Program-made: the position numbers and the translations under genes
Shown here: positions 1-63,889 of the stretch, piece after piece
How positions within the stretch are numbered: the stretch's first letter is position 1
Layout: each line of letters starts with the position of its first letter
The notes under the pieces: model-generated
The model's database searches: none
What the model was told of the DNA's origin: nothing
What the model saw: only the letters and a program-made list of their open reading frames with translations
Source of the DNA: Amoebophrya sp. A120
Lineage: Eukaryota; Protista; Dinoflagellata
Reading direction: 5' to 3'
DNA: 64,000 nucleotides
Assembly (NCBI GenBank): GCA_905178155.1
Contig: CAJINV010000009.1
Coordinates: 3,847,556 to 3,911,555, forward strand

Positions 1-63
1 GGCTGTCTTGCTGGTCTTGTGGGGCCACCGCCCTTCTTCTCGCCCCACGGGAATGGGATTCGC

Positions 64-4243: not shown

Positions 4244-4314
4244 ATTCAAGAGTCATGCCTGACACGCATGACAAACATGCATTCTTCCAGACCCAGACAT
4301 TTTTGCACTTGATA
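4244..4314. mobile_element. Right-end fragment of a family A introner (left part displaced)
   Basis: AAGAGTCATGCCTGACACGCATGACAA...CCAGACCCAGACATTTTTGCACTTGATA matches the right end of copies 33977-34231 and 58254-58510; homology stops near 4244. Confidence 0.85.
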
Positions 4315-7300
4315 TGTGTGGATTTACCGGAAAAATCCGAGGCGCTATTCGCAAAATTGCCTATGTTCGCGAATTACATGCTGGTGGAAATGGAAAAAAA
4401 AGCGAAAACGTTGAACGAGTGGTATAGTTTTGTGTTTGGAAGTTATTACTTCATCGTGTTTGATGCATGACAAACGCATACATTTTGACGTGCCGGCAAT
4501 ACAAATTTGCTTTGCCAAAAATTCTTGTTCCACCTTAAAAAAATCGTATCTTATCTTCAGGCTCGACCGCTACCGCTTCTACATGAACCTGGAGCAGGGC
4601 AAACCAAAACCCGACGCGGAGGGGCAACAGAGGATTGCGAAGCTCCGGAACGACTGCGACACCGTCCTCGAGGATCTAGCGAAGGACCGGTGGCAAAAGA
4701 TGTGGAGCCGGTTGAACCCCAAAACGAACTCTTTCGTCACCGACGAGCGGGCCTGCGCCGACCGGAAGGTGATGCTGCTGAAGCAGATGGCGATGGTGAT
4801 CCAGGTTTTGATCAGGAGTAAAGAGTCGGGGCACTGGTTTGCACGGGATCTACTACCCTATTCTGGAAAGGAAAAAATGCAGGCGTTGGTGGAAAATATC
4901 AACACGATCAAGAAAGCGTATTTCCAGTGCGACACGTTTGAGAGAATGGAGAAGTGGCTCGGCTTCATGAAGAAGGAGGCGGAAGGGAAGTTTTTGAAGA
5001 AGGCGGACAGTATCATGAGTAAGTACGGGACTGTGTGCTCCTTAGGGTCCGGGGGAATTTGCGGTTTGAAATCCGGGAGCCCAAACGAGATCATGAAAAA
5101 CGCGATGGATGGTATACTAATACATGTTGATGTGATCTTGGCGATTTCCTGTTTGTGTTGAAGCGTTTTTCATCTTGCATCACCCAACTACTTACATCAC
5201 TAGCACTACATGTCGGGGGACATGTGTGGTGTTGCACGTCTGCTCCATTTGTTCAATTTGCAGCTCTGAATTTCATCACCAAATCTATTCTCACTCTATC
5301 AGGCGCCACCACTCCTTGCGAATACGTGGTCGCGCACCACTTGCTTCCCCACCACAAAACCAGCCCGATTCTTATGACGGAGAAGCTCAGGTGTTTGATT
5401 GGCACGGAAATTTGGGAAGATTTGCACGACAATTTTCCCCTCTACTGCAAGTTGATTTACCTTCTCTCCGACGGCCACAAGGAGTTCATTCACTTGGTCA
5501 GTTCCGAGTGCATTTTCGAATTCCTGAAAAAGCACTTCCGGGAGTCCATGTTGTTTCTCCACACGATTATAGACGTGCCGAAGAACGGAGGAGGTCCGAA
5601 TAACACCCAGAACAAGAATCCGATGCAACTGCAAAACCAGCAGAACAACAACAATAATCCCTCGGAACAGACCACGAAAAAAGTTCTTCGGATCTACGTC
5701 TTAGGGGAGGATGACGACCACAATTTCATCCCCGCAGTCAAAACCATCACCGGCTTAGTGATTGACAACACGTCGACGAATACCCCCGCGCCGAGTTTCA
5801 AGCAGGAATTTCCGAACTTACTCAGGGAGTTCCAGCATTGGCTGGATAAATTCCCGAGGGAGCTCATGGTCCCCTTTTCCCCGGGCCACATGGCGATGCA
5901 CAACTTCGGCCAGATATGAAAGCCTCAGGTTGGAAATCCTCAAAGTGGAAATAATTTGTAATGCAAGAAAACGACTCCAGTTGAACTTGAAGCACCATTG
6001 CTAGTCGGCGCATGAGAAATCTCCCGGACACTCAAAACGTGTCTGTCATGCTAGTTAGGCAAAGGGGTGCCCTTCTGTCGTGCTAGTCAGCAGCCCAATT
6101 CTGAACCAGTAGAAGCACAACAGTCGGCCTCCGTTGCGTCCACTGCAATACAGGGTTTTTTGCGTCGCATTTCACGCGTCACAAATTATTTCCACTTTGA
6201 GGATTTCCATTCTGAGGCTTTCATACCAGATGCAGATCGTTTTCAAATCCGGTGACGATACGACGACGAAGAAGACGCATGTGTCATTCAGAGATCCGAA
6301 AACCGGGAACATCACGGAGTTGACAATCAGGGATTTTCTCGAAAAGTTCGGGCCCGTTGGGAAAAAGGCGGATGAAATTAAGGAGATCATGGAGCAACAG
6401 TTGAAACAGAAGCAAGAGCAACTACAGCAACAGCAACTCTTGCAGCAGCAACAAAACAGGCTAGGAGCAGCTGGAGTTGTTCCTGGAGCCCCGGGCGGGC
6501 AGCCGCCGCGGCAGCAGGAACACCACCCATTGGCGGTGCAGGGTGCGAAGGAGCTGGCGAAGGTGTTGAAAGACAACCCTATCCCGATTAAAAACGTACC
6601 CACACCAGAGTCAAGATGGGGATTTTGCAACACAAACCTAGGAGTTTTGGGAGTCACGCATGACAAGTTTCAGTCTGTAAGGTAGTGCAAGTTAGCAAGG
6701 AAAGCCGCATCACAAATCGATCTGCTGATCCTGTTTACAGCATTACAAGTTCCCAAACACGATTGAGAATGCCTGTCATGGGGTTGCGCATCACAAATGT
6801 TCCTGTCATGGCAAATCTGCATGACAACTATGGTGCTTTTGGCTCAAGGAGAGCGCAGGCATAGCCTCAACGCCCCGCGCGTCTGTGTGCGCTTTGAAAA
6901 AAAACTAAAAAAAAAAAAAAAAATGTTCGCTGGTTCTTTTGGTGCTCCTCCCCACAGCGCCGGCACAACCTCCTCGGGATCGGGCCACGCAACTCGGAGG
7001 GACGAACGGCGCCGGCGAAGCACGCCTACAACCCAAGTGCGGCCCCAAGTGCGTTCGGCGCGGACGCGGCTCGGGTCGGCTTTGGCAAATGGACACCACG
7101 TTTCGCGCGGAGGCCCCCCAGCTCGCCCAAGCCAGTAGCAGCAAGCTCAATCGAGTCTTGTTCCCCATGCACAATAGATGCGAGGTAAGGGGCGCACAAT
7201 AGATGCGAGCTCAAGGCTTGGCACCGCTGGGGGGGATGGTCTTGGCCACATCGCGGGAATTTTCCCGCCGTGGAATCGACAATGGACCTGGCGCCGGCGT

Positions 7301-9179
7301 TTTACGCTTCTATGTTGCTCCCGCGTGGGCTGCGGTCCGCGTGAAGAAGCGTGTTCTACTTGAGCCGCCTTGCCAATCGTGTATCTGTGCTCCGAGCTTC
7401 TGGGCAAGTGTAAAGCATGCTTCTTGACCGCCAAAGTTTGCGGTCAGGTGGATAAGCATTAATTCTCGCTGCATCTCTTACCTTTAACTTGGATGTCTAA
7501 ACATCACTTCAGGCCTGCGCTTGTCGCTTAGTGTCTCCAGTGAATGCATTCATCCAGACAGTAGCTACGGGCTTTGCCGCAGGCTGCAGCTTTCTCTTGT
7601 AGTTGTGTGCCTGGCTGTACATTCCCGATATAGTGGTTGCGAGTTGGAAGTTTGCGAGAATCAGAGTAAGGAATTGTTGGCAAAAAAGTGAGGCGTTGTT
7701 CTGTTGGCAAGTGGGCACAAGTTGGCACAGTATGGCTGTTGGCACAGTATGGATATGGTTGGTGGCGATAACAGAGTTGGAATATAGTGGCCGGGAGATG
7801 ATGGTGATGGCACTTTGGCGTCCGCCTGACCCACCCGCCCTGCGTCTCAAGCCATCTGCGGCCATGGCACAATGGGGGGGCAAAGTGTGTCGCATTTTGT
7901 TTAGCATGACAACTATGGTGTGGGTACGTTTTTACTCAGGATAAACCCGCAGGCAAATCTAACCGGGGACGAGATCGTGAAGCGCGTGAAGGTATCAAAT
8001 GCAAAAATGTCTGGGTCTGGGACGAGATTGCGAGATTTGTCATGCTAGTCTGGCATGACTCTTAAATCTGTCATGCACGTTTCCCAAGAGCCCCATTTTG
8101 CTGTCATGCAGAAACGCAGTTTGCCATGCAGAATAGGCAACACCTAGAAGCTCAAAAGCTTGTCATGCTGAGCCAGCATAATTTGTGGCCTCTTCATGAT
8201 ACGCCACCCAGCATCACAAGTTTCCAGACCCAGACACTTTTACAATCCATACAAGGAGTTTGTCGCGACGTGCGGGAACATCGTGAAGCTTCACGAACAG
8301 ATGCAGCGGGAGTACCATGCGGAGGTGCAGCGAAGGGGCGGGCCGAATCATCCGAACGCGAAAACGATCGCGCCGGTCCGCGCGTTGGAGTCGATGTTGA
8401 AGCTGCAACTGGTGATTGCGACAACGAATAACCCCCAGCTCCACTCCGTCGCGCAACACCCAAAATTCCACACGATGGACCCGAAGCAGCAGCAAGCGAT
8501 GTTGCAGTACGTTTTGACAAATTCGGCGAATTTACCCGGGGGAAACAACAGTACTCAGGGAAATAATAATCAGGCGCAGCAGAATAATATGAACCAGCAT
8601 CAACAAAATAACCCGAATCAGTTGAACAGCATTCAGCAGCAATTACTGCAGCAGCACCAGCAACAGCAGAACCAGATGCAGCAGCAACAGCACATCCTGC
8701 CCATACCAAATCAACAGCAAAACCAGGGCAATAATATCATGCCCATGATTGCTCGGCAACAGCAGCAGTACAATCAGCAACAGCACAATATGCAGCAGCG
8801 ACATCAAAATAACATGATGAACAACTGGAGCCAAAAGGGTGGAAAGGGTGGAAAACAACATCACAACAACAATTACGGCGGGATGAATAACAACAACATG
8901 CATCATCAACAGTACAACAACCATAACCAACAGCAGCAACAACAATACAACCAGCAACAACAATATCAACAGCAGTTGCAAAATAACCAGAATCAGCATA
9001 TCTCACCACCCCGGCAAAACCAGACAATCTCCGCCGCGAGCTTGCTAGGGAATATGTCGATGTCGGCGGGGAACACGCCCGCGTCGACAAACAAACGGCA
9101 GTCGATGGAGCACAACAGTCCGGCGAAGAGGCAAAACGCGCCGCCCGTGAAGTTAGGGGAAGAGGATGATGAGTTGTAA
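4315..9179 (+). CDS. 5'-partial multi-exon hypothetical protein with Q/N-rich C-terminus
   Basis: Exons ~4315-4421, 4561-5111, 5303-5914, 6231-6579, 7949-7991, 8256-9179 join in frame (NEWLDRY, MDGATTP, FGQMQIV, KDNPQAN, RVKEFVA); stop 9177-9179. No family recognised. Confidence 0.8.
4422..4560 (+). other. GT-AG intron (GTATAG...TTCAG) with relic introner motifs
   Basis: In-frame join EW-LDR; contains GCATGACAA and GCAATACAA. Confidence 0.8.
5112..5302 (+). other. GT-AG intron (GTATAC...CTATCAG)
   Basis: In-frame join DG-ATT. Confidence 0.8.
5915..6225. mobile_element. Introner family C
   Basis: 45-bp TIR TATGAAAGCCTCAG..GGAAATCCTCAAAGTGGAAATAATTTGT with 2 mismatches; direct repeat CCAGA/CCAGA. 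Confidence 0.93.
6836..7903. mobile_element. Nested insertion with 17-bp duplication, probably retroposed
   Basis: GCATGACAACTATGGTG at 6819-6835 and 7904-7920; no TIR; starts with an SL fragment and has an internal poly(A). Confidence 0.85.
6837..6923 (+). other. Dinoflagellate spliced-leader fragment + 48 nt + poly(A)
   Basis: TTTTGGCTCAAG (6837-6848) equals the last 12 nt of DinoSL DCCGTAGCCATTTTGGCTCAAG, one base inside the insertion boundary; A8-CT-A17 at 6897-6923. Confidence 0.75.
7993..8251. mobile_element. Introner family A (forms a GT-AG intron 7992-8255)
   Basis: TIR TATCAAATGCAAAAATGTCTGGGTCTGG; repeat GAAGG/CAAGG. Confidence 0.92.
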
Positions 9180-19085: not shown

Positions 19086-22000
19086 ATGGCTGACGTACTG
19101 CACATGATGGGTCGTTGTACTTGTACATCAGCCACCCCGAGCTGCTCTAGCACGAGCAGGCCGCGGTTTTTTGACGACAGGGTGGACCACAAAGACCAGT
19201 TGTTCTCGGTGGAAGTTGATATGTCTTGTTTTGACGACATCGGCTCCACCTGCGCCGGCCCAGTAACAGCACGGCCTTCTTCAAGAAGAAGCAGAACCGT
19301 GCTGGAGGACGGAGGGCGCAAGATAAACATGGCCAGTACACTATTTTCAACAAGAAAACCGCCTTCCTGGGATACAGGACAGCAAAGTGAGGACACCGGG
19401 AGGCCACCAGGAGGAGGAACGACTGCACCGAGGACAGCAGTCGCAGTCCAAGCTGCTCCTGCAAACAAGAAAACCATGTTGCTGCACAAGCTCAAAAACA
19501 AAAATCAAAGGGAACAAAGTCAGTCGCTTTTCCTGCTCTGGAGGTGGTGGACAGCGACGAGACCAAGAGAGAAACTACATTTCTTGAAGAAACTCGGTTG
19601 GTTGTTCCTCTACTTGCTGAACCTCTTCACTTTGACAACAACTACCCTTGCCGAGGTGAAGTACCCAAGACACGAGGAGGACATCCCCGGACATCCAGAT
19701 TTGGTACGTGTAACTTACAAGTTAGACGATATCAACGGAGATGAAGATGATCATCTCCACAACCACGTCTACAAACCGGTGAAAGAGGAATTTTCTGTGT
19801 CATCAAACAGTGGTGCGTCATCAGCTGCTGCTGCATCATCAAATAAACCGATTCCCGGCTGGCAGCACGCGTCGCCGATAGGATCTTCTGAGCAATCCTG
19901 TTCTTCTGGTTCCTGTTCCAAAACCGCACCAAATCAGCATGACACCGACAGTACCCACCACATAGACCATTTAGGTCGGAAAATCCCAAGGAGGCTGTTC
20001 GAGGAAGAGGCAGACAACCTCGCGGCGCAAAGGATTCGCAAGGAAACGCAGGAGTACGAGCGGCCAAAGAATTTACCGCCAAATAAACAGCACGGGGATC
20101 ACTACCGGGCGTTGCTGAAGTCCAGGTTCCCGCTCGATAACGACGCGGACAAATACGAAGTGGATCACGAAGCCGGGGTAATCAGGCAGAGATTTGACCA
20201 CAGACCGGTGGTTAGGTTGAAGGAGACGAGTGGTAGTGCAGGTAAGGAAAACGATCAACAGCAGCTCCACGACGCCGATTTTGCCCGGGGTGAAAGAGGC
20301 AGTAAAAGGCAGCTAGAAATCGACGGCGTCGTCGACCCAGCTGGGGTCGTGATTGAGGCTCCAATAGTAGAAAACAAAAGTCAACAGCAGGACAACACAG
20401 ACCATCAAAACAAAAAGAGGATAAGAACCGTTGCGGGTAGGGATGAAAACCACTTCGAGGAGCGGCTGAAGGAGACGACAAAACAAGCCGAGACCGCGCT
20501 TCAGAAGTACAATGAGGAAGTAGCGACAACGAAACGTCAACTAACCGAACAATTTCCAAACGAGACGGAGGAGCAGCGGGAAAAACGGTCCCTGCAGATC
20601 AACACGGCGGCGACTGCTGCGCTTTGCGCGTCCGGTGAAGTCTCCTGTTTTTTGAAGCAGGAAGTGTGTCGTGGGATGGACGCGGCGAGACCGGGGTACT
20701 TCTGTGGGGAACGGTGGGGAATCACGAACGTGGTGAAGATAGAGGATCAGTGGGAGATCGCCGATGTGGAATTTTTCTGGGACCGACAGTGCGACAAACC
20801 GGTGCAGGGATCGCCACGACAGCAGTCCTTTTCCGATGCGAACGCAAATCCGCCGTACAAGGATATTTCCGCCTTGGCGTTTGACAACAACAACAAAACG
20901 GCGTGGTTGGCGAACTGCGGGGCGGATTTAGGCGGCTGTCCCGCGTATGACCCGACGAAACAGGGACAGAGGGTATAGAAGTTGTTTTGTTGGTACAGAA
21001 GTTTCTCATGCTGACGACGCATTTCTTATTCAGTTTCTCAACTTGTTTGCCACGCGCACTCCTGTGCTACTAGTTCACTTGCAGTAGAAGTTGCGGAACA
21101 TCAAGATCTTCTTGGTCTTGCTTTTATCGAAATATAAACAAATTTATCAGGTTGTCAACAACGTCGGCCCGAATACCGTGATCTACCAGCAGCTTAGAAA
21201 AAGCGATGACCCGGTCACGAATCCGAACAACCTTCCGATTTACGGCAATGTGATGTTGTTCGATCCCGCCACCATGTCTGGTTTTACCGACGGCGCGATC
21301 AAATGCGTCCGGATCCACCAGAGCAAAATTACAACCAGACAGGCCTACCACATCGCGGTGGTTTTCTGGGACACGTTGCAGTGGGTGAAGTACGCCGATT
21401 ACGACGCGTTGGCCGGGGGTGGGTGGCTATGCAAGAAAAAAGTGTGTAAGTGTAAATCTGTGATGCAGAAAATGCCAAACAGTTACACTTGTCGTGCTAG
21501 GCATGCATGGCCGGCTCGCTTCCTATGTGTTTTTCCTCTGTATCTGCGCATAACAAGTTTGTTCTGTCATGGCAGACAAACTTGTGATGCTGTTTTCCCA
21601 AAAGGCTTACACTAACACAGTTTTTTTCTTGGATAGTGGCAAACCAGACCGCCGATTGGGAACACGGTGTGGAAGTTGACGAACCTTAATCCGACCGTCT
21701 CCCCTTGGACCGTGAATGAACTCTACTTCTTCGGGGATCGACGCTGTGACTACGCGTTACACGGCATCCCGATTGGCAGGGAAAACGTCCGGCAGTTACC
21801 CCAGTGCTTGCCCACGCCAGACAACCCGGCGGGAACGTGTGAAGAGACCTCCGTCGAGAAAATCCGGGATAACGACGTCACCACCGCGTACCGCGCCAGG
21901 TGTACGCAAACGGTGGGGGTGGTCGAAGCGCCTTGTTCCTCGGGCGAGGCCTTCGTCGGCTACGACTACGATTCCGCACCTTTAACGGTGTTGTGTATCA

Positions 22001-39000: not shown

Positions 39001-39117
39001 AAAAAAATTGTAAATCAATGTAACTTAGGTCGTCCTCGTTGACCTAGCGTTAGGTTACGAACTCAAAGGTACCACGCCGTCTGTTTCATCTACAACAAGA
39101 AAAGAACTGCATCTACA

Positions 39118-48172: not shown

Positions 48173-51100
48173 ATGACCGGCATCGAAGACACGCCCCAGG
48201 CCGATCACGGCTCATCCCGCCGCAAACAGAGCATCGGTGAATCCTCTACCAACAGTGGCAATACAGGAAGTTTCACATCTTCTGGAGCAGCTGCAGCAGG
48301 ACCACGAGGACCAGCAAATCTTCTGCAAATAGAAAACGTCCACACCATGTCACCACAAGACGCAGATACTACCGGAAGCGAGACGCTAGAACGAGCTACC
48401 GCTGCAAACGTAGCTGCGAACACCGGCGCAACTGCTTCAGCGGAGGACCACGCTTCGGGAGGTGTACTCGCAGCAGAACAAGAGCAGTCCTCGCCTAGCA
48501 AGCAGAGAAGAAGTCTAAACCTTACCAGACCCACTTCAACTACGCAACTGAAAAGCACGATAACAAACAACACCGACTTCCTGTGCTCGAAGCTGCCGAG
48601 GTTAACGATCCGCGAGTGGGCGTTTCTCTCCGCTTTCACCATCTGGACGACGATTATTGTCAACAGCCTGGACAATCGGAAGGATTGGTGGATCACACCA
48701 CCTCTGTCCCTAACCCAGCACGACTACCTGCGCGGGCAGATGATCGCACTGTTCGGGTTTGGCTTAACCGCAACGGGGATGTTTATCGCGGGGCGGCGGG
48801 CGTACAGATTGTATTTTAAGGAAATTGCGAACTTCGGGAGCAGCGGCAGTAGTAAAAGTAGAGGCTTGACAAGTTCAAGTGACAAAAGCGGTGTTAGCCA
48901 AATAAGCAGAATGCCATCTGCAACCAAGCAGGACGAAGATGCTAATAGTTCGGGGCCGTTGGCGAAACTAGTGATAACCGAAAAACAAGAAGTAGATCCC
49001 CGAGCGTCCATTTTGTCGAACAAAGAAGAGGAAGACGAACGTCTTTATGCAGTGCAAAAGTATCGTACTCGTCGAAATGCATGACAAATTTCTATTTCCT
49101 CAGCATGAGAAATAAAATTTGTAATGCGGATTTCTTACCTTAAAAAAAAGATTTGTAATGCGTGACTGCAATTCCTACGAGTGCGATACTCTTGCAGTTC
49201 ATAGTTTTGCCTCCACTGCGATTCCTTCTTCCGCGATGGCGCCCACATTGACCGCGCTGGATTCTATCGGCGTTACAAATTCAGTATCCTGTCGTGCAAA
49301 AGTATCCCACTCGTATTGCAGTCATGCATTTACAAATCTTTTTCTTTCGGTAAATCCGCATGACAAATTTCACTTCTCATGCTGAGCAGGAAACTTGTAA
49401 TGCATTTATACGAGTGCGATACTTTTGCAATTCAGATTCAGTGATTAGTAGTGCTGCTGATCCAGCGGAGGTTGAATTAGAAGTAGCCGAGCAAACGCTA
49501 TCAAATGCAAAAATGTCTGGGTCTGGAAGAATGCGCAATTTGTCATGCAGCTTTTCCATGACCCATGAGGTCTGGAATGCAGGACCTAGCATGACAGATT
49601 CTGTGCGATTTCTCTCATGCCTATTCTGCATGAGAACCCCCCTCCCGACTTGGTCAAAAACTCGACGACTTTTGGTAATTACGCAACACAGATTTTTGCA
49701 TGCTTCAGATTTAGCATGACAAGTTGCATTCTTGTTCTTCCAGACCCAGACATTTTTGCACTTGGTAAACACGCCGGAGAAGCAACAGCCGCGAGCAAGC
49801 TTTGGCAGATCATGCGGCCACTTCTGCAGGAGCTCCAACTTTGCTAGCTGCCCTTGAAGTAGGACAATACGAGCAAACGAGCGCAGCAGGAGCTGCACAA
49901 GAGCAGCTGCAAACCAAGATAGTAACAAGAGCAGAGGGTCGTGATGAAGCTGCCGCGACTAGTACCACATCTGTGCAGGAGCTAACCGAGGTGGAGCACG
50001 ACCAGCGGGGCGACCTGTCAGAAATGAGAATAACGTCTGCGACATCTCCTTCTTCTGCGAGCGCCGTCAGTAAGAAAATGGAATCGACAAAGTTGTCCAC
50101 TGTGTCAGCTGCGAGCAGGAGAACGACCTTGAGATACCGCATGGTATCCACAGTAAATAATTTCCCGTACATGAAAAAATGCAGTCACTGCATGACAAAA
50201 CTTGCCATCAATCCTAGTCTAGCATGACAAGTTGTACACTGCAAGTTAGCGCAATTAGTCATGCATTTTGTACATGTACAGGAAATTTGTATTGCATACA
50301 TGGAGCAGAAACTGAACTGGGTTTCCAACGAGTGGAAGATCCGGATCATTTTCGGCGCCTACATGTTGTCGACCCCGTTTCTGTATCAAATGTAAAAATG
50401 TCTGGGTCTGAAAGAAGGCAACTTGTGATGCTAACTTTGGATTCTAACAAAAATCTGTATTGCATGACCAGCAAGCGGCGCCCAGTTTGTTTGTGCTACC
50501 TATGCGGGCCGGGCATTTGTCATGCGGGATAGGCATCAGGAAGGCCTCTTGAAATATGTGATTCTAGATCATGCATTGCAGACATCCTGAGTCATGCAAA
50601 ATATGCATGACAAACCTGGCAACCTTCCAGACCCAGACATTTTTACATTTGATATTCTGTTCGGCATCGCGTTCATCGTGGACCAACACGACAACGAGGT
50701 GGAGAGCGAGTTTCTACCTGTGGATCGAAAGAGTCATCAGTGGATGTCCAGGTATACAGGAAGCAAAGTTCTTTGGGATGCGGGATTTGCTTTTTAGATT
50801 CTTGAACTTGTCATGCATCTTTCTCAATCTACTTTTCGACTTTATATATTTTACTCAATAAAAAACTCCAGGGTTTTCTTCACTCTCCAGCTTGTGCACC
50901 AGATTGGCTTACTCCTCTGGACCTGGCTTTCGCACGATAGCACTTTTCACCCCGCAATCAAGCGGCACTACGAGGACAAGCCGGATATCCGAAACTCGAA
51001 ACCGCTGAAGGAAGTTTTCGAAAAACGAAGGAACAACATGAGCAAAACACTCTACCTCGCGCTCCTCCGACAGAAAAGAGTGTGGCAGTTCCGGATTTTT

Positions 51101-52617: not shown

Positions 52618-55600
52618 ATGGATGTGGATCAGGATCACGGCATAGATCCTGATCCACAGAATGACGATCTTCCCGTAAATCCGCCAACAGAAGGGCCACA
52701 TCAACATCAACCCCAGGAACTACATCATAAACTCGAGCCGGAAAGCGAGCCGGAACTGGAGTTCTTATGAACTGCAAAAGTATCGTACTCGTAGTATTGC
52801 AATACAAATTCGCTCAGCATGACAAATGGAATTTCTTATGCTGATTTGCCTTAACAACAAGACTTGTAATGCATGTTGATTACACTTATACGAGTGCGAT
52901 ACTTTTGCACAGGATAGTTTTCCAAAGCGGACGAAATCGCATTAGCTGTGACGAAGAAATTTGCGCAGTCCAAGGAGCATGGCAAGCCGCAGAAGGAGAA
53001 CAAGGAGTGGACGGTTTTGGCTGGGATCGTTCTCGAGGAGATCGAGTGTGGGAATTTCACCAATTCGCAGACGACCTTCAACAAAACGAAGTTGAGTTGT
53101 ATCGTCTTCGCGACGGGGACTCGGTGCTTGAGTCCGAGTTTGCTGGTGCTCCCGCCTTTGGTGGAAGAAAAAGCGGGTGAGGAGGAACAACTAGAAGGAG
53201 CGCAACGAGATGAAGCTGCTCCGGCGGCCGCGCCGGAAGTTGCTCAGAACAAGCGGGGCCGTGGGAAAAAGAACAAGAAGTCTGCTCTTGCTAGCACAAT
53301 TTCGACGACAGCATCATCTTCCTCTTTCTCTTCATCATCGTCTTCCCACTGCTCCGCGCTAGAAATTTTATCCCCCGTCAACAAAAAACGTTCGAAAAAA
53401 CGAAAAAAACTTCGTTTCGGCCCCACCTTCCACCAACTGCAATCCGAGCAGAACATGAGTAAATTACACCGAAGACTTACTAAGACGACCAACAGGCTGC
53501 CGAATAATTGGTCGATTCCAGATAGACCGATGAAAAAACCGGCGGTCGTGAAAGGGAGGAAACAGGACGAGAATGTCATAAATAGTCCGTTCCGGGATTT
53601 GGTGTTAAGGGATTGCCACGCGGAAGTGTTGGCGCAAAGGGGGTTCAAACTCTGGCTACTGCGGAATCCGGAGAAGGCAAAGTGGTATTTTGAAGGAAAG
53701 GCGAGGTTTCATTTTTACACCAGCTGCGTTCCCTGCGGGGAGGCGGCGAACGTGGAGATGGGAGGTGGCAATCGTGGCCATGGGACTACAGACAGCTCAC
53801 CAGACGAACTGCTGCACAAGAGCGGAACTGCAGCCACACAAGAACCTTCTACCAGCGCAAGCTCGTCGTTTACTTCTTCATCCTCCTCTTCATTCTTGGC
53901 GTCTTCACAATTATCCCAAGCCGCTGCTAGTGAACAACAAACCCAAGAAAAACCCCAGCACTACACCTACCCCCTCAAAACCGGCGCGAAACCCGTGGAA
54001 CTCCAGCAAAAAGAAAACAACGAAAACGCGAGACTGGGTAAAGCCACTACATTGCACACCAAGCCGATCGATTCTCGCTCCGACCCTAGCAAACGATCCA
54101 AGTGCATGTCGTGTGCTGACAAAATTTGCCGGTGGAACGCCTGTGGCTGGGACGGGGGCGTATTAGCCGCTCCTTTGTACGGGTTCGAACTAATGAATAA
54201 AAAAGATGATCAACATGGTCTATCCACCGCCGCTCCTGAATCGTCATCAGCTACATCCGAAGCCGCAGCGGCCTGTGGGATTCGCATGTCCTCGATTGTC
54301 ATCGGGGGCGCGACCTCGTTTGACGATTTTTATTCGGCTGCAAGACAGCTGGATGATTTCTCAAAAAAGAAGTACGAGCAGAAGTTGTGGGACGTGCTTT
54401 GTGGGCGGGTGTTGCAGATGCGGCACGAGGAGCAGTGTGATGGAGAAGACGCAGGAACTACAGCAGCTTCGTCATCATCTCGTGGTGCTGGTGGAAGTAC
54501 AACTGGAAGTGGAACTGCGCCGGCGCATGACGTTCAAGTCGGTGTTGCTGACGTCGTGGGCAATACCAACACAGGAAGCAAAGTGGACGAGCACGATGAT
54601 GGTTATGGTTTCGAACCAATCCCGCTCTTGTCCGAGTTGGATGACGATAACAGTACCCAGGAGGAGGTGGAAGCCGAAACTGCGAAGCGAAGGAAAGTCA
54701 CTGAAAATAAATCTTCTGATGGTGAAACATCTTCGCAAGGTCAACAAGGTGCTGGTGCTGGTAGAAGTAGTGCAGTATCATCTACAACAGCCGCTTCCAC
54801 GTCCGGCGCCGCGGTGCAGCAGCAAGGTTATGGAAGCGTCAGGATTGAAATCGTCAAAGTTGAAATAATTTGCAATGCATAAAATGCATTACGCGAGGTG
54901 CGTGTATTGCAGAGCAGGCAAGTGAGGCCGATTGTAAGCCTGTTTGGGGTTAGAGCTCGAGGTGCTAGAGGAGCATCAGAAAATCAGTCTTCTTTGCCTA
55001 AACAGCATGACAAACTGGGTTTAGGGGCCGCCAAAACTTGTCATGCGCCACTTGGAAACTGGGTTCCAACTGGCGTCCGTTTTATGCATGACAAATCGTT
55101 TCAACTTTGTCGATTTCAACTCTGACACATCCATAAAGGTCAATCTTCGGATAATGAAACGTCGCAAGGTCAACTACTAGGTGCTGGTGCTGGTTGTAGA
55201 AGTTATCGCGCCAAAAAAAATGATCATACTCATACTTTCGCCATTTTTGGCCAAAATCCAGTCAATCGGAATCGAGGCAAAAAAGTCCACTTTTTTGCGT
55301 ATGACCACTTTTTTTAGCCAGGACGCTATGGCGATCCTGGTGCTTTTTCAGAATCAGCCTTGTCCGCCCGTGATTTGCATTCTTTTAAATGTGGCGCTTT
55401 TCTGCGTTTTGGAAGAATAGCGCCGCGCTAAAAAAAGTGGTCATACGACTTTTTGTCGCGTTTTCTTCTAGAAAAGTTGAAAAAAGTATGAGCGCCCCAA
55501 TTTTAGGGCGCCGGAAAATGGTATGATCACTTTTTTCAAACACGGCGGTATGGGCCACATGTGGCCCACGCCAGGAAAAAAGTGATCATACCCAAAGTCG

Positions 55601-58600
55601 CCGCATTTTCAGTCTTTCTTGCAGAATCTGTGAAGAAAAGTGCTACTTTTCAGGTCAAAAACGGCAAAAGTATGAGTATGATCATTTTTTTCAGCGCGAT
55701 AGAAGTGCAGTATCATCTACAACAGCCGCTTCCACGTCTGGCGCCGCGGTGCAGCAGCAAGGTCAATCTTCGGATAATGAAACGTCGCAAGGTCAACTAC
55801 TAGGTGCTGGTGCTGGTTGTAGAAGTGCAGCATCTTCTATAGCGGCAAAATTGGTATTCGTATTCAAAAATCGCAAAAATTTTTCCCCCCGCCCAGCTCA
55901 CTAGTGCAGGCGCCCCCGCCTGCGGTGCCTGTTCTTCCGCCTCCGATTTAAAGCCCTCGACGGCCGCTCTCCGCATCCCGGTGTTTGAGGAAGCTGCCAA
56001 GTGGTTTTTGACCGATAGCGCAATGACTGGCCCGATCTTGTGGCGGCGCTGGGTAGCCGAAAACGGCTCGCGCCTGGCTTGGGGCTTTTTGACGGGCTGC
56101 AGCTGCCTCGCGGCTTGTCCGTGTCAGCTGCTCTCGGCGTGGCTACACCGACGGCAGATGGGTCCTGCACCCCCGGAAAATTTAGTGCCCACGAATCCAG
56201 CGCACCATAAGGGGCATTACCTGGCCCCTAGATTCTCGGGGCGCCCTACGGGCACCACGCCCATCACTCAGCTGCGCTGTGGAGGCGAAGTGGCGTAGAA
56301 ATGCGCTGCGGCCTCCGCCTACGAAAGTGCCTTTTTGCATTCTTGGCCAGGAAGCAACATCTGTGGCCGCGGCCAAGCGTTCAGAGAAAGCGGAGCATTT
56401 GCAGCAGCCGGTCTCGCGGACCGGCAAACTTGATGACTCGGGGAAAGGATTTTTGCCCTTCCGGATGCCGAGCAAAAAACGCCGGTTTTTTCTGAATACC
56501 AAAGTCAAACACGGTCTGAAATTGGTATTCGCTGGAAATTCTGACTTTGGTATTCAGCGACATTTGACCCCCCTCTCTTGGGGGCAACCTTGGGCAGCTG
56601 AATACCAAAGTTGCGCGGAAGAAAATCCGTCCGAGGTCTCCGTTTCCTGTGAACGCTTGGAAGCGGCCACAGATAATTGCTTCCGGGCCGAAAATGCAAA
56701 GAGGCACTTTCGTAGGCGAAGGCCTCAGGGCCTGTCTACGCCAGCTCTTCTCCGCGGCGCAGCCGATGGGGGTGGTGCAGGTAGGGCGGCCCGGGAATCT
56801 GGGAGCCAGGTAATTCCCCATAGGGCGCGCTGGGTCCGTCGGCACTAAATTTTCGAGAGGTGCGCGACGCATGTGCCGGCGGTGCAGCTACGCCAAGAGC
56901 AGTTGACACGGAGAAGCCACGAGGCACCTGCCACCCGACAAAAAGCCTTAAGCCAGGCGCGTACCATTTTCGGCTATCCAGCGCCGCCACGAGCTCGGGC
57001 TAGTGCTTGCGCTATCGATCGCCACCCCGCGGCGGCTTCCTCAAACACTGAGCGGCACAGCGCGTCGCTCGAGCTCGTTAAGTTGGAGGCGGCAGAAAAG
57101 GCACCGCAGGCGGAGGCGTCTGCACTAGTGAACTGGGCGGGGGAAAAATTTTTTGCTATTTTCGAATACGAATACCAATTTTGCCGTTATATCTTCTACA
57201 ACATCCGCTTCCACGTCCGGCGCCGCGGTGCAGCAGCAACAGCAGGTGGATGACTCGCAGGAGCAGCAGCAAGAGCAAAATGATGTTCGACGAGAGCGTG
57301 GTCGCGAGAATAAATTTCAAGTACCTCTACAGCACGTGAGCGGCCGCACGAGCGGAGTCCTAGCGGAATCCCTCCCCGCAGTTGTTCTCACGAATGTCGA
57401 CTTCGAATTTTCACAGCGAAACGCGAATCTCACCGTCCACAACCACTGCCCAGAGGTGGTGAACGAAGGAGTTCTTCTTGTTGGTGGTGCAGATACTGGG
57501 GGCGAAATGAAGACTGCAGCGGGGGCAGCATCCTCTTCATCCTCATCTTCACAAGCGAAAAGGAACAAGGTAAAGCGGCCTGTTACCACTGGATACAGCA
57601 AGATCTTCGTTGAGGGAGGCGGATTACTGCCACGGGAAGTTGTGAAAGATGTTGAAGGGGGTCCTGGTACTCAAGATGCAGCTCATGTTGGTGAACAACA
57701 GCCCGGCTCTCTTCCCGAAGATGCGGCTGCTGCTGATCCTGCTGCTGCCGGTGGTTCAGTACTACAGCAACCTTCATCTTCTTCCTCTTCATCTTCAACT
57801 TCATCTCCTACCCTCGACAACACCAGGATGACATCTTCTACTTCAGGCTCAACAACCAACTCACCAGAGAACAACCCGACGCAGCAGGAGGAAGTGGTCC
57901 CTCCCGCCCCAACTAGTTCGTCCAGCGGACAAGCTGAAGTTGTAGCTGCTTCTGCCGACCACGTCCCTTCTATGATCCAGCAAGCAACTACAAACAAGAA
58001 TACCATCAAAGTGAAGCCGAAGCGTATGCATTGCAAAACAAGTATCGTGCTCCTACTCGTATAAATGCATTACAAATTCCCTCAGCGTGAGCAATAAAAT
58101 TTGTCATGCGGATTTACCTTGGGAAAAAAATTTGTAATGCATGACTGCAATTACTACGAGCGCGATACTTTTGCACAGGATAAAGCGACCAGATCTCCAC
58201 GAGGTCATTCTCGGCGACTACGGTCTGAAGCAAAATGGCAGGAAATACCTCCCTATGCATTGCAAAAGTGTCTGGGCCTGGAAACCTGTGATGCTGGGTG
58301 GCGCATCATGGGGAGGCCACAAGTGCTGGCTCAGCATAACAAGTTTTTGAGCTTCTAGAGGTGTTGCCTACAACTCTGCATGACAGTCTGCGTTTCTGCA
58401 TGATAGAAAAGTGGCGCTCTTGGGTAACGTGCGGGACAGATTTAACACTCATTCCAGACAAGCATGACATACATGCACTCTTCCAGACCCAGACACTTTT
58501 ACATTTGATACTCCCTGGCTTCGGCTCCGGCGACCGGGAGACCAGGGAAAGGATCAACGCGTCCCTCACGAGGGAGGTGATTGCGCTCCGAAAATTCGGT

Positions 58601-59194
58601 GGAATACCCATAACGAGCGAGCAGTACCTACACGGTAGTGAGTACGAAGCGGGTGTGCAACATTTTGTAGAATACGACCCGAACATTATCACCGAAACCG
58701 AGCTGTATTGGACCGACTACGTGTTGCAAAAGTGCTACGGAAAATTTACGAGTTTGTTGTGCACAATGAGTCTGAAGGAGATAGAGAAGGACGTGCTGAA
58801 ACAGGCAAGGAAGGCGAAGAGGAAAATTAGAAAAGACTACACAGCTGCGATGATGAGCAGCTCTAGCTCTACTTATGCAGCAACATCAGCGGAGGTTTTT
58901 CAGCACGGAGGGAAGACTTTATTTGAGGTTCCTGCTGGCGCTGTTGTGGGAAGTTTTGTTGATAGCACGACTTCCGGCCTGTACGGGATCAGAAGTACGT
59001 ACGCAACGACGAATCTCCACGACCCTACGTCTACTTCGGCTTTGTTGTCTTGTTCCAAATCTGGTGGAGAAGATGCGGTTGAAAAAGAATTTCGCAAAGC
59101 AGCGTGCGGCCGGTGTGGCTATAAGGAAAGAAAGATGGCTTTTCACTGCACCCCTCCGTGGGAGGGGTGGATCCGGAAAAGTAGGAAGGAATAA
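52618..59194 (+). CDS. ADAT1: tRNA-specific adenosine deaminase 1 (Tad1/ADAT1)-like protein with large low-complexity insertions (~1273 aa)
   Basis: Motifs ADEIA...GKP...EWTVLAGIV, ATGTRCL, DCHAEVLA.RGF, FHFYTSCVPCGEA, KTGAKP, MSCADKICRWN, EVILG..GLKQ, W.GWIRK; no dsRBD seen. Exons 52618-52765, 52922-54828, 55141-55203, 55707-55837, 57197-58024, 58188-58253, 58516-59194. Confidence 0.88.
52766..52916. mobile_element. Introner family B
   Basis: GTTCT/GTTTT; join LEFSKADEIA. Confidence 0.9.
54829..55135. mobile_element. Introner family C
   Basis: AAGGT/AAGGT; join QQGQSS. Confidence 0.95.
55204..55701. mobile_element. Introner family I (498 bp, GTATGA/TCATAC motifs)
   Basis: TIR TATCGCGC..AAAAAAATGATCATACTCATACTTT; GAAGT/GAAGT; join CRSAVS. 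Confidence 0.93.
55838..57191. mobile_element. Introner family J (1354-bp foldback)
   Basis: TIR begins TATA.CGGCAAAATTGGTATTCGTATTC and extends ~550 bp; TCTTC/TCTTC; join AASSTTS. Confidence 0.93.
58025..58182. mobile_element. Introner family B
   Basis: AAGCG/AAGCG; join PKRPDL. Confidence 0.93.
58254..58510. mobile_element. Introner family A
   Basis: CTCCC/CTCCC; join YLPGFG. Confidence 0.93.
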
Positions 59195-59960
59195 GGAAGA
59201 TGAGCAGAAAGCTTCAGCATTCATCCTTTGCTCAAAATCATAATCGTGCGACAGCTTCTACTTATAGTTTTTTTTTTGAACAAAATCAAACCCACACGGT
59301 AGTAGAACAAGCGACACTGAAATGGCGAGGAGCATCCCATTTATCGATGCGAAATCTACTTGATGAAACGACGCGCACTCACGCCATCTGTTGTTCACAT
59401 CAGGCTCGGGCGTTGCACTGCAACCGTAGTCTTGCAGCCGCGTATTCGTAAAAAAATGTTGATCTTCTGCACAATTGTGATAACGTTCTAGTCGTGGTTG
59501 CAGTGCGACACGGAAGGGCCACAAGAACAAAATTTAGAACAAGAGCTTTTGCAGAGTAATAAAAGGTGCCCATTGTTTTGTTGAACTCGGTGACGTGTCG
59601 TACATCTGGCGGCAGTAAAATTCATCTCTGATCTTCTGTATCAGTCGTGTAATCGGTTCGTGGATGTGCGATCATGTCTGGGTGGGCGTGGGGGCAAGAA
59701 CCGGTACCGGTCACGATCTACTTCGGTACAGTACAACTTTTAACAGGATGAAGCACTACGTGGGCGCATCGTGTAAAGTCAGTTCGTGGGCATCTTTTGT
59801 AAACTGTCCGAGCACTACGATTGAACGAAAACATCATATTGCTTCGCTGTTTTTGAACAGGAAATCAACTACGCATATTCCTCGTACTGTTATCACCATC
59901 TATCTAGGTTTTTGTTTGTCACAACTCCAACAAGAAAAACGAAAAACACACGACAACCCA

Positions 59961-61504
59961 ATGTCCACCGCCCCTCTCAACCCCTACTCGGGGTCCCTAC
60001 CGGGCGACCGGTATTTTGGCGTCGGCTCCAGTTTTCCCAAACCCTCCAGAAAGCACTGGAACCACAACACCCCCTCTCTCACCCGAACCGCGTCTGTTCC
60101 GGTGTTGGTTAACTCCACCAACGGCGACCTATGCAGTGCAAACGTATCGTACTAGTATAAATAGCGTTACAAATTTCCTCAGCATTACAAATGGAATTTG
60201 AATTTGTAATGCGGACTTGCCTTAACAAAAAGATTTGTAATGCATAACTGCAATTAGTAGTAGCGATACTTTTGCACAGGATACGACCACGTGAGCAACG
60301 AGTTGCATCCCCCGTTTTCCCGGGTGCATTACGACTTGCGGACGAAGTATCCAACGAAAAAAGTGTTTCACTGTAAGTAGGAGTTTGCAAGTTTAGCATC
60401 ACAAGTTTGTTTTGCATGAGAGCGAAAATTTGCCATGCGATATTTCCAAAGGAAAACACCACTAAATAAAATCCATTGTCTTGCATGCGTAGCAAGACAA
60501 ACACTTCTAAGATGCATTTCCTGCATTACAAGTTTACAGTGAAGCAGTTTTTTCTTTGCATACGAAGGCTTTGGAGGACTCGGGGTACCAAGGAAGATGG
60601 AATTTGCTCCGGTACTCCTCAGTCACGCAAAATTCCTTCGACCGAAGTGTTCGCCCGGAAATTATGAGAGTGCATTTCTTCTCCTCCTCGTCCCTCTCAT
60701 TTCTTTGTATTGCATGAAAAGCAATACAAACGCCCCAGCTGTGGAACCTGTGCATGACAAGTTCATGCGCCTATACAGTGTTGTTCTGTTTTGGCCGCTC
60801 CTTCCCGAATCTGTCATGCAAACAGTACCTCCACAGACGCAGAGCGCCAGGTATTTTGCATGACAAATCAGGGGGAGGGGGAGTTGTGCACACCCATAGA
60901 CATCGACGCAACAACAGTCGCGAACTGCGGGAAAGTGAAAATGCCGCTGGGCCAATACGTGACGGATGTGAAGAAGACGAACAACCTATGAAATGCAAAA
61001 GCATCGCACTCGTACTAATTGCAGTTATGCATTACAAATCCAGATGCGAAGGTAAATCCACATTTACAAACTCCATTTATAATGCTGAGGAAATTTGTAT
61101 TGCAATCGCTACTAGTGCGATGCAGACGCTTTTGCAGTTCATACCACCCGGCTTTTAACAACCAGGTGCACGAGTCGTCGTTTGATAGAGTGATCTTCCA
61201 CTCCTCCTGCATGCCTGACGCCTGGCGGTACCGCTATTCAGGAAAAAACACCCATCCCCATACAATTATTTGTCATGCAAAACATGCACCAAAAGCAGTA
61301 TTTGTCATGCAAAAAATGGATGGGGATGACGATGAGTCTTTTTTCCTGGATAACCGCACGGAGTACCCTCGTACCTTCGCGAAGCAGATGCCGACAAGGG
61401 TGTTGGAGAACCCGTTGGTGAAAACGGAAGCCGGGATCGTCGGGCCGGAGCGGCCGGACCATGCGAACACGGACGGGAGCTTCCCGAAGATGTATCATCC
61501 GTAG
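59961..61504 (+). CDS. Hypothetical 212-aa protein with five introners
   Basis: Exons 59961-60129, 60289-60347, 60568-60662, 60904-60986, 61149-61234, 61358-61504 in frame; YRTEY..F and YSSVTQNSF loosely recall microtubule-inner-protein motifs (weak). Confidence 0.78.
60130..60283. mobile_element. Introner family B
   Basis: CGACC/CGACC; join NGDHVS. Confidence 0.93.
60348..60562. mobile_element. Introner family K
   Basis: CGAAG/CGAAG; join RTKALE. Confidence 0.92.
60663..60898. mobile_element. Introner family F
   Basis: GAAAT/GACAT; join PEIDAT. Confidence 0.9.
60987..61143. mobile_element. Introner family B
   Basis: CAACC/CCACC; join NNPAFN. Confidence 0.9.
61235..61352. mobile_element. 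Introner family M (118 bp, in frame, stop-free)
   Basis: TIR TAT.CAGGAAAAAA.AC.CATC; ACCGC/ACCGC; two TTTGTCATGC motifs. Confidence 0.88.
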
Positions 61505-62531
61505 ATGATGTTGTGGTGGTATGATGGTGTTGGTGTATACAAAAACAGGAGGGGTGCTGGGTCATTCCGTGTGAGTCTGTCTCGGGATGAGCTCCTCTAT
61601 CAATGATCTTTTTCGGGCTTGTTGGAAACGTTTTATTGCTCTACAGAGAATTTGATTTGACTTTCAGCCTCAATGCAAACAACTATGACTAAAAAAAGAC
61701 CAATAACTGCAATCTATCAATGAGTACGACTTGTTTCAATGACACAACAAAGCAACGCTTTTCGTCTTCTGTAAGTTTTGACAGCAACAGCAGCAGCTGA
61801 ATTTTCAAGTATCACGCTAATGCACCCAGGAAATGCATCAAATGAGTTGTAGAATCTACCTGTATATAAAACCACATCGCGATGAACGAGCTGTACACCT
61901 CTGGCGCGAAAAAAATCAAAAAAAATATGACGACAAGAATTGTAGGCTCCTTTTGCCCTTGAGCATGAGCTACCGACATGATTGTTCGTAATTTTCCGTG
62001 ACTCCTAGGCGTCGAGAACAAGATACTTGAGCGAAGCACGAGTACGCGCTGAAGAATGATGAAAACTACAATGCAAACACAGATACGTTCGTGCCGTCGT
62101 GCAACGTCGTTCGGTTGATCTTTTTTTCTGGCTCACAGTCACAGCTAGCCTCTAGCAATGAACGATGACAAAATCATTTGAAAAAATAAGACGAGAAACA
62201 TTGCCAGTATAGCCCTTTCGCTTGTTTTACGCATCCGCACCCAGTACAACTTCGTCCTTCGATACAATTACAAAATCAGAACCTCCCGCAGCTCGTTCCT
62301 ACTTGAATTGCTGCAACATCAAATCGTGCAATGTCTTCGAGTAACTTTTCTTCACAGGCCCCTCAACAGGAGGTGACGTTTCCCCCGATGAAAGATGTGA
62401 GTTTACGAGCCACCCGCTCTTTCACAAGAAACAAAGTTGAGAAGCAACTAGAAACAGTACCAGAGTCAGCCTCTCTATGGCAGAAGTTTTTTCTTTGACT
62501 TGAATCAACACAACCAAACCTCCTCCCAAAA

Positions 62532-63889
62532 ATGAAATTCCGTCCCCAGTCCAAGCTGCGGCGGGTCGCCGCGACGAACCAGGAGTCTTCAATCGGGAAT
62601 CTAGACATGGACGACTCCGCCTTTCTCTGCGGCGAAATCACCAGCGGACGGAACGAAGGCAGCAGGATATCAACTTATGGAAGCGGAAAAACAAATCTTG
62701 GGCAAGTTGAAGTTCGTTGCGCTGACGTTTGTCATATACGCACCAGCACCACAGACACGCGGCACTATCCTCGCCGGCACCGCCCGCCGCGCCGCGCCCA
62801 CGTTTCATCCGCGCTTTTGCCTCGCTCGCCACGCCCGCTCGCCCGTAGGAAGGTTATGTAGACTTTAGCTTTACATCGTCTGCCTCTGCCCGCGCACCTA
62901 CGCCCCCGCAATAGCATTGCCGCTGCCACTGATGCTGCGTCTGCGTGTAAGTAGAACGAAACACATCAGAGAGCAGTGTGTTGCAAGAGTAATATCAAGA
63001 AACTGAAACTGCTTAGCTCAGGACGATTTCCCTTCTATACCCTCCTTATGCCGCACGGAAACAAGTGCATCTGCTGCCTCCCGAAGGACATGAGCGGATT
63101 CAAAGTCATGAGCCGGATATCCTGTGCAAAAGTATCGTACTCGTAGTAATTGCGTTTATGCATTACAAATCTCTTTCTCAAAGTAAATCTGCACTACAAA
63201 TTCAATATGCAATCATGCTGGGCTAATTTGTAATGCAATTTACACTAGTACGACTACGATACTTTTGCACAGGATACCGAAAGGACTTCGGCAAAATGAT
63301 GGGAATCAGTGAACCGCCGGGGACGAGGAACAGTAGTTTTGCCGGAGCAGGTGTGGCGGGAAGCAGTACTAGCGGAGGGCCCTCGTCGTCATCGAATGCC
63401 GCAACAGGCAGCACGATAAACGGATCATCTACAGGTAGCGCATCTTCATCTTCTTCTAGCAGCGCCGCTGCAGTACCAGTAGGACAAGCGTCAATGAACG
63501 TGGTCGACAGCACGGGTAGTATTGGCGCCCCCCGACAAGGATCCACAGCTGCTTTGTTCGGCGCGACCACCGAGAATAGTTCATCAGGAAAGCGACCGCC
63601 GCTCGAGGACGAAATAGAGGGCATTGAGATAGACGACATAGAAGCACCGGGAGGAACCGCTGGACTGATGAAAAACGCAGAAGATGAAGAGGACATCATG
63701 ATAGACTCGGACGACTTGGCAGGAGCGGCGATCGCAACCACTACTGCCGACAGCACGAGGAATCCGAGTGGTGGTTCTTTCTCCCGCGGCGTTGGTGCAT
63801 CTGATGGTGCGGAGGCACAGAACCAAGAATGCGCACCAAGGATGGATGCAGTCACACGTCTAGGCTCATCGAGTGGTGACGCGACGTGA
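62532..63889 (+). CDS. Hypothetical protein with S/G/D-rich C-terminus (~358 aa, 5' structure uncertain)
   Basis: Tentative exons 62532-62852, 62970-63117, 63282-63889; the first (GT-AG) intron is a best guess. Confidence 0.55.
63118..63276. mobile_element. Introner family B
   Basis: CCGGA/CCGAA; join MSRKDF. Confidence 0.9.

Follow-up and report, generated by a model that had tools for sequence, protein, structure and literature searches.

TAT…ATA introners in a 64-kb window of Amoebophrya sp. A120: miniature DNA transposons with a 5-base duplication

Background

What moves a class of introns in an organism for which no transposase is reported, and what removes them when their end bases are not fixed and U1 was not detected? 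Both questions are raised by a 64,000-nucleotide stretch of the genome of Amoebophrya sp. A120 (contig CAJINV010000009.1, positions 3,847,556 to 3,911,555; the window, on whose plus strand all features below are numbered), in which 52 elements with TAT…ATA ends and a 5-base direct repeat interrupt coding sequence. The explanation towards which we lean makes them miniature DNA transposons without coding capacity: insertion duplicates 5 bases, a single integrase-like transposase likely moves them, and an altered spliceosome likely cuts them out of pre-mRNA by way of their paired ends.

Elements in the window and in a relative

A strict scan, a relaxed scan and BLAST together gave 52 complete TAT…ATA elements, 118-1364 bp long, besides an isolated right end at 4244..4314. 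The strict scan, which required TAT…ATA, an exact 5-nt repeat and no more than 3 mismatches in 12 bases of terminal inverted repeat (TIR), found 28 matches in the window; 19 of 20 block shuffles gave none and the remaining one gave a single match. Clustering produced 14 groups, and merging three with common TIRs left 12 families of 17, 11, 6, 3, 3, 3, 3, 2, 1, 1, 1 and 1 members, lettered by copy number to match an earlier note on this DNA, whose element count, size range and family sizes are thereby borne out. The rule which that note had drawn for all families, TAT…ATA ends with a 5-bp duplication, stands as well: TAT begins all 52 elements and ATA ends 48, the 3' end being damaged in those at 33977, 39469, 49285 and 49499, and the direct repeat is perfect in 39 and has one mismatch in 13. 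Copies occur in both orientations. Every one of the 52 interrupts coding sequence, for which uniform insertion gives p ~3e-9 to 2e-11; the window average is 1.7 per kb of coding sequence, and depth over the elements in sequencing run X5 reaches 170,000, as against about 45 on unique DNA. An Rfam search gave no match.

When metagenome data were scanned with the family A end, 153 stretches from 147 loci came back, all belonging to one assembly, here called the relative. There, 310 elements were found by their ends alone (179 of family A), of which 306 had usable flanks, 184 could be oriented confidently and 171 had at most one repeat mismatch; these 171 and the 52 of the window make up a set of 223 oriented elements. 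TA is present at 220 of their 223 5' ends and 212 of their 223 3' ends, and the consensus of all 446 ends is TAT[CG]nnnTG[CT]AAA.

The interior of the elements carries a shared motif, GCATNASAA, which occurs with its complement 146 times in 14.7 kb of elements (9.9 per kb); its density is 0.10 per kb in exons, 0.17 between genes and 5.2 in GT-AG introns. With a slightly looser form of the motif, 31 of 97 same-strand pairs less than 100 nt apart are spaced 31-33 nt, and the paired pattern has 25 matches versus 0 in 100 shuffles. Across the 223 elements the motif is strand-symmetric (288 sense, 309 antisense, counts in which copies inside one family are not independent), and at 330 of 446 ends the copy nearest the end is 30-49 nt away from it, often at about 40 nt. 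Strand symmetry and helical spacing point to a binding site on double-stranded DNA, in support of one shared factor; this suggests that the GCATNASAA repeats are a putative DNA-binding site in which 31-33 nt would be three helical turns. The phrase "consensus-poor", applied to these introns in the earlier note, is thus wrong for the element as a whole, since the ends share a consensus and the interior a motif, and only the junction bases are free.

The same motif marks the position of nested inserts, which are flanked by 13-21-bp duplications starting at it. Two such inserts lie in the window, at 26278-27238 and 6819-7920, and three more at 9473-10727 of locus L006, 3862-4492 of L050 and 4926-5429 of L073. 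The first, of about 0.92 kb with a 20-bp duplication, sits in the family E element at 26235..27326 (repeat AAGAT; skipped as part of an RNA-like length sum), and the second, of about 1.07 kb with a 17-bp duplication, in the family D element at 6580..7943 (repeat AACCC; clustering, folding). Inserts in 26235, L006 and L050 have a common 3' end and differing lengths, as 5'-truncated site-specific retroelements would; no open reading frame (ORF) match was found in the inserts. In viral contigs the family B end had 0 matches, and the paired motif was found at 121 loci, none resembling the elements.

Target-site duplication

The length of the repeat is most sharply defined in the relative, where a perfect 5-nt repeat flanks 242 of the 310 elements, any other length from 2 to 9 is perfect in at most 26 (6 bp in one, 8 bp in one), and the two copies agree in 90-93% of cases at positions 1-5 and in 19-27% beyond them. 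Locus L146 of the relative is 97-98% identical to window positions 48556-48810 and holds two elements in full and one end of another; the window is uninterrupted at these sites, with a single GGACA and a single CACCT at the two complete ones, so that elements are present or absent between strains. Empty paralogous sites with one 5-mer are supplied within the window by the tandem repeat of a deaminase-domain gene: the tandem unit next to the family C element at 54829..55135 (repeat AAGGT) is such a site, with one AAGGT, and others lie near the single element at 55204..55701, a long hairpin with repeat GAAGT that is without the shared motif. Because the orthologue in the relative and the paralogues in the window show empty sites with a single 5-mer, the 5-base repeat is, on these comparisons, a target-site duplication (TSD). 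Target sites in the window and the relative show no sequence preference. TIRs, a TSD of fixed length, empty orthologous and paralogous sites and the lack of coding capacity together define a non-autonomous TIR DNA transposon, or miniature inverted-repeat transposable element, and all are found here, as the earlier note's claim of a transposon origin had it.

One repeat is longer. At 39469 the damaged 3' end of the element matches upstream exon sequence (39459-39468 and 39619-39628), which extends the repeat to 10 nt, as repair by copying would leave it.

Removal from RNA-like sequences

Runs X1 and X4 were taken to be RNA by guess, hence their contigs are called RNA-like; over 37825-39138, depth is 0 in X1 and 44-47 in X5. 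Four GT-AG introns are missing from a 10,649-nt X1 contig, and in six X1 gaps, holding 24 elements, the skipped length is the exact sum of each element plus 5 nt and the GT-AG introns. Run X4 repeats four of these gaps and also skips the family B element at 39469..39623 (repeat GCGAA, 3' end AGA), the sole junction to be resolved individually, where 160 nt are missing (155+5). The element-plus-5 skip thus covers 25 of 52 elements from 9 of 12 families in both orientations, and includes two with damaged ends and the copy with the 0.9-kb insert, in agreement with the exact removal that the earlier note had claimed.

That note had also reported in-frame junctions in 8 genes. When element plus 5 nt and eight GT-AG introns are deleted, all 52 elements do fall within the ORFs of 8 genes; deletion of element plus 2 or plus 8 places 51 of 52, so the reading frame alone does not fix the figure of 5, which is fixed instead by the RNA-like contigs and the empty sites. 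If retained, 50 of the 52 elements would disrupt the frame or introduce a stop. The two exceptions, both 3n and stop-free, are the family B element at 29006..29159 (repeat GTGGA), which is nonetheless removed according to the RNA length sum, and the shortest element, of 118 bp, at 61235..61352 (repeat ACCGC), which stands as 41 codons in the public annotation, possibly through intron retention or annotation error. Annotated A120 protein P0002 is identical to the element-plus-5 model across 654 aa, and further junctions agree with other annotated proteins; between 43400 and 63399 the support for the junctions comes from frame and annotation. Every element is likely to act as an intron, and the skip is observed for 25 of 52; the assertion that all do so was overstated, because RNA-like coverage reaches 25 of 52 and the annotation keeps 61235-61352. 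The same note was right that most junctions are not GT-AG, for 2 of 52 elements can be drawn as GT-AG and 1 of 52 as GC-AG.

Splicing agent

Removal by the spliceosome is probable. A120 has U2, U4, U5 and U6 and most spliceosomal proteins, U1 not being detected (Farhat 2021, PMC7789003), and 8 of the 9 GT-AG introns in the window begin GTATA, which places TAT at +2 to +4, as it would be in the elements with a cut one base before TAT; the intron at 35678..35862 starts GTATAG and contains the shared motif three times at 31-nt spacing. It is possible, if considerably less probable, that the same transposons are excised without the spliceosome, by a nuclease and a ligase that recognize the terminal stem, a route proposed for the nonconventional introns of euglenids. 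Such a pathway would suit the random junction bases, the irrelevance of orientation and the failure to detect U1 (PMC7789003), and euglenid introns yield circles without lariats (PMC11282704). Folding is in keeping with it too, as it predicts end-to-end pairing of 17-30 bp in 48 of 49 elements versus 0-8 in eight GT-AG introns, with an end-to-end stem by the first 14 pairs in 41 of 49, a comparison made without a shuffle control and in which inverted repeats pair by definition. Several findings speak against a nuclease that reads the stem: of the 9 ordinary introns, 8 share TAT at +2 to +4 and 6 carry the motif, and two of the skipped copies do without their terminal pairs; moreover, damage to TA is rarer at the 5' end than at the 3' end (3 versus 11 of 223, p 0.057), and a copy at L022 looks like an element turned GT-AG. 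That copy, on the minus strand of L022, is a GT-AG intron whose end resembles that of a family B element and which looks like an introner turned canonical; it and the intron at window positions 50752-50871 have a perfect CCAGG repeat at both ends.

Mobilization

Judged by termini and duplication length, there is an even chance that the mobilizer is one DDE enzyme of the IS3EU/GingerRoot/Ginger group. IS3EU termini are always TA..TA (PMC12730594, PMC10045372), and TA..TA termini are what the elements have; the 4-5-bp TSD of Ginger1 and Ginger2-TDD agrees with theirs. Within A120 itself, family 38 is classed as Ginger, with integrase-related homology and "5-bp TSD, TA/TA termini" (Gozashti 2025, PMC12130899). 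The hAT-like enzyme of the earlier note fares less well and, narrowed to a hAT5-like transposase, is an unlikely mobilizer. Families of hAT5 do make 5-bp duplications (PMC12730594), weak hAT5/hAT6 terminus matches are given for one A120 family (PMC12130899), and subterminal repeats occur here in both orientations; set against this, the hAT duplication is usually 8 bp (PMC12730594), a length that is perfect in 1 of 310 elements, so that 5 bp fits hAT5 only, TA..TA is the signature of IS3EU/GingerRoot, and the A120 family listed under the same rule has homology to integrases (PMC12130899).

Position of the cut

Where the two copies of the repeat differ, the base retained tells which copy is kept. 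The RNA-like contig retains the upstream base in 2 of 2 cases, at position 1 for the family A element at 24334..24594 (repeat GGACG/CGACG) and at position 2 for the family D element at 25899..26185 (AGGTG/AAGTG). Annotated proteins, in cases that depend on the annotators' alignment, retain it in 3 of 3, at position 2 for 60987..61143 (family B, CAACC/CCACC) and at position 3 for 49046..49203 (family B, GTCTT/GTTTT) and 60663..60898 (family K, GAAAT/GACAT). The upstream duplicate is therefore the one retained in 5 of 5 informative cases; the mismatches at position 4 (4 of 4, in the elements at 23111, 49499, 52766 and 63118) are synonymous and uninformative at the protein level. Because the upstream base is retained at positions 1-3, the intron would start 0-2 nt before TAT and end 3-5 nt after ATA, and a cut between N and TAT is favored because 8 of 9 GT-AG introns begin GTATA.

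It has to be asked whether the cut might instead slide inside the repeat, leaving both copies sometimes coding, which we regard as doubtful given those five cases. Of 39 repeat mismatches, 27 are at third codon positions, which make up 35% of positions (p 1.7e-5); the excess is also larger than expected from a 2:1 model in which one copy is neutral (p 0.023), and Farhat draw the sites as variable (PMC7789003). It may reflect a sliding cut, or recombination with synonymous allelic variants, which would give it too. Sites whose repeat opens on a third codon position are also in excess (23 of 52; 80 of 168), a count not used as splice evidence.

Two further clues to the cut were discarded. At repeat position 5 the window has no mismatch (0 of 13), a pattern that breaks down in the relative, with 6 of 27. 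The observation that the top A120 classes of Farhat are all NT-NN (PMC7789003) was rejected as a sign of a cut one base before TAT because the full tables (family 2: NT 69% at the 5' side, AN 68% at the 3' side) are mirror-symmetric and better read as aligner preference. An anchored intron search in the relative found no TATCAG enrichment, and a motif-blind GT-AG intron finder, which recovered 0 of 8 window introns, was dropped.

Template switching by reverse transcriptase across a hairpin between direct repeats is a cDNA artefact, and the elements have just that geometry. That the skips are such switches, or excisions at the DNA level, is very improbable: the data are short-read contigs and the joint table of the DNA run is too crowded to exclude empty DNA forms, but one contig at depth 317 is without 24 elements together (the insert in 26235 has depth 8-13), 50 of the 52 would disrupt their host genes if retained, and run X5 has element-flank junctions at single-copy depth (~40).

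A combined explanation

The explanation that we favor would run as follows. One DDE transposase would act in trans on the TAT[CG]nnnTG[CT]AAA ends and the strand-symmetric GCATNASAA repeats, and insertion would duplicate 5 bases. In pre-mRNA the ends would pair as a stem of 15-30 bp and draw both duplicates together, and the cuts would be made 0-2 nt ahead of TAT, one base ahead being the likeliest, and 3-5 nt past ATA, with N and TAT on the two sides of the 5' cut taking the place of the G and TATA of ordinary A120 introns.

Several observations weigh against this explanation. The identity of X1 and X4 as RNA is a guess, and 24 of the 25 skipped junctions were checked as sums. Protein P0001 equals the model except for one 40-aa tandem unit that the public annotation drops, and P0003 equals it except that 61235-61352 is kept. 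Drawing as GT-AG succeeds for 11 of the 223 elements, GT and AG being enriched in no register, and the 3' register that would match (TA at -6/-5) is found in 5 of 9 window introns and 4 of 25 predicted introns of the relative. No terminal stem is predicted for the family E element at 43298..43458 (repeat ACTTC; clustering, folding), and two elements with a damaged ATA are still skipped. The shared motif, present in 50 of 52 elements, is absent from the two long hairpin singletons. Subterminal repeats that run in both orientations are reminiscent of hAT and CACTA elements. As to the enzyme, no transposase was found: 10 ORFs from long elements, three of them in 55838..57191, had no Pfam match, and no long autonomous copy was found among the loci of the relative. 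The available text of Farhat 2021 (PMC7789003) reports no transposase in A120, IS3EU duplications are usually 6 bp (PMC12730594, PMC10045372), a length perfect in 1 of 310 elements, and Ginger termini are TGTNR (PMC2836005), which the elements lack.

A fuller account can be drawn in which an integrase-like transposase with a 5-bp stagger binds GCATNASAA repeats spaced by three helical turns and mobilizes most A120 introner families, a U1-less spliceosome reads TAT at +2 to +4 and the TIR stem, many GT-AG introns are aged copies, and a second, site-specific retroelement targets the motif and so shelters within the introners; taken as a whole it is improbable. Were it true, a U1-less spliceosome free of a terminal-dinucleotide rule would make any insertion into an exon silent at once.

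Host genes and individual elements

All 9 genes of the window lie on the plus strand, like the co-oriented blocks published for Amoebophrya, and three window exons are 100% matches to database proteins named Amoebophrya sp. A120. The gene at 19086..36049 has 3105 codons once 25 elements and 5 GT-AG introns are removed and is covered by the one 10,649-nt spliced contig; it encodes extracellular-looking modules in repeated form along with a multi-pass hydrophobic stretch, its 3' untranslated region extends to at least 37220, and no Pfam family scored above cut-off in six exons tested. The gene at 52618..59194, with 6 elements, matches protein P0001 and has an adenosine-deaminase domain (PF02137, E 4.6e-16) wholly within one exon; at 54745-57245 it contains a coding tandem repeat of about 120 nt, each unit of which hosts a different element. 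The gene at 12796-18071 (1705 codons, low-complexity, 5.1 kb) has no element inserted, and the last gene, at 62532-63889, probably has a further intron near 62730-63020, where stops appear without its removal. Positions 150-2500 and 3250-4200 hold a GC-rich satellite array of 170-183 bp units and, after it, inverted blocks of 12-bp tandem repeats.

Family B, with 17 copies of about 150 bp, is the largest. Skipped in the RNA-like contigs as part of a length sum are its copies at 28156..28303 (ATCAA), 31310..31463 (ACTTG; a sum of two), 34519..34677 (CGATC) and 35485..35634 (AGGAG/AAGAG); the copy at 32909..33061 (CACGT), in reversed orientation by clustering, is likewise skipped. Clustering and an annotated protein place those at 52766..52916 (GTTCT/GTTTT, in the adenosine-deaminase-domain gene), 58025..58182 (AAGCG) and 60130..60283 (CGACC), BLAST and an annotated protein that at 49285..49436 (TTCAG, 3' end AGA), and clustering those at 40885..41037 (GGAAA), 43515..43664 (CAGCT/CAACT), 45596..45740 (GCGGA) and 63118..63276 (CCGGA/CCGAA).

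The 11 copies of family A include five more in skipped sums: 22763..23021 (CCTCT; a sum of 3 elements and a GT-AG intron), 23111..23375 (CACAA/CACCA), 28503..28771 (TCACG), 34924..35180 (AGGCG) and 33977..34231 (CACTC), which is skipped in spite of its 3' end ATG in a sum of 4 and a GT-AG intron. Assigned by clustering are 7993..8251 (GAAGG/CAAGG), which can be drawn as GT-AG from one base before TAT, and 40560..40846 (GAAAA), where an RNA-like piece stops at 40553; clustering and an annotated protein support 49499..49767 (AACGC/AACAC, 3' end GTA), 50384..50654 (TTCTG) and 58254..58510 (CTCCC). The lone right end at 4244..4314 is of this family by BLAST and context, its left partner, possibly at 4202, being missing or decayed; it may belong to a decayed element beginning GTATGTG at 4201.

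Six copies of about 310 bp form family C, found at 5915..6225 (CCAGA; scan and clustering), 27795..28100 (TTGCT) and 32457..32766 (CCAGT), both skipped in sums, 30423..30732 (CGTCA; skipped) and 45770..46076 (GAACG; clustering), besides the copy in the deaminase gene. Sums also account for the family D copy at 29679..29957 (TCTTG), the family F copy at 24643..24860 (GAGTT), both copies of family G at 23535..23769 (ATTGA) and 31569..31803 (GATGA), the family K copies at 27434..27664 (ACCCG/ATCCG; a sum of 10) and 29362..29581 (ACCGC), and an element at 32178..32392 that is single in the window (CAGCA; a sum of 3). Clustering places the family F element at 21428..21635 (GTGGC), with RNA-like pieces starting at 21636, and, together with annotated proteins, 60348..60562 (family F, CGAAG) and 50145..50298 (family E, CATGG). 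The single element at 55838..57191 (TCTTC) is 1354 bp long, has inverted arms of about 560 bp and is without the shared motif.

Comparison with known systems

The window elements are published A120 introners and do not differ from them in kind. Farhat 2021 (PMC7789003) describes 29,850 A120 introners whose inverted repeats start TAT + 7 nt + AAA and whose direct repeats are 3-5 nt long, with a 5-bp example shown; the organism, the ends, the formation of families and removal without GT-AG (here in 25 of 52) all agree, as does the border repeat (39 of 52 perfect 5-mers and 13 with one mismatch). Published families of about 150, 208-235, 255-280 and 305-320 bp are on record, and most A120 families are TIR DNA elements of unassigned superfamily (Gozashti 2025, PMC12130899). 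The earlier note had recognized the phenomenon as known and nevertheless claimed too much novelty, in that repeats starting with TAT, the 5-bp example and the "5-bp TSD, TA/TA" family had appeared in these sources. One difference is that published automated repeat calls are mostly 2-6, whereas the repeat is uniformly 5 here, as the empty sites show. The TAT…ATA and 5-bp rule is not universal in A120, because a Mutator-like family is listed under another rule (PMC12130899).

Among transposons, IS3EU/GingerRoot elements resemble these in TA..TA (TAYGG in fungal families), in TIRs and in an integrase-related DDE enzyme (PMC10045372, PMC12730594), and differ in the usual 6-bp duplication, with no intron role in the available descriptions. 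Ginger2/TDD elements TDD-4 and TDD-5 share the 5-bp duplication and TIRs and differ in TGTNR termini and an AT-rich target preference (PMC2836005), where TAT and no preference are found here. The hAT5 group has the 5-bp duplication in common (PMC12730594), and no hAT protein was found. Among introns, the nonconventional introns of euglenids are alike in a TIR stem that joins the ends at a fixed offset, in TSD-like repeats and in non-GT-AG ends (PMC11282704); they have CAG/CTG at +4..6/-8..-6, a purine/pyrimidine junction bias and circles, whereas the window elements have TAT/ATA in place of that stem signature and random junctions. Nor, apart from the few that can be drawn so, do these elements have the GT/GC-AG ends of U2 introns.

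Because the class is published for A120, the intron class is already known in kind and organism, and the finding is a rediscovery. What is added to it is modest: the shared motif, the constraint on the cut side, a candidate enzyme and the nested inserts; no description of the motif, its spacing, the cut side or the nested insert was found in the parts of the literature available, where the motif string itself was not searched. Nevertheless, a uniform 5-bp duplication with empty sites, a motif that can serve as bait and an IS3EU/GingerRoot-like candidate narrow what moves and what removes these elements, and the 13 mismatched repeats can locate the true cut using existing RNA reads.

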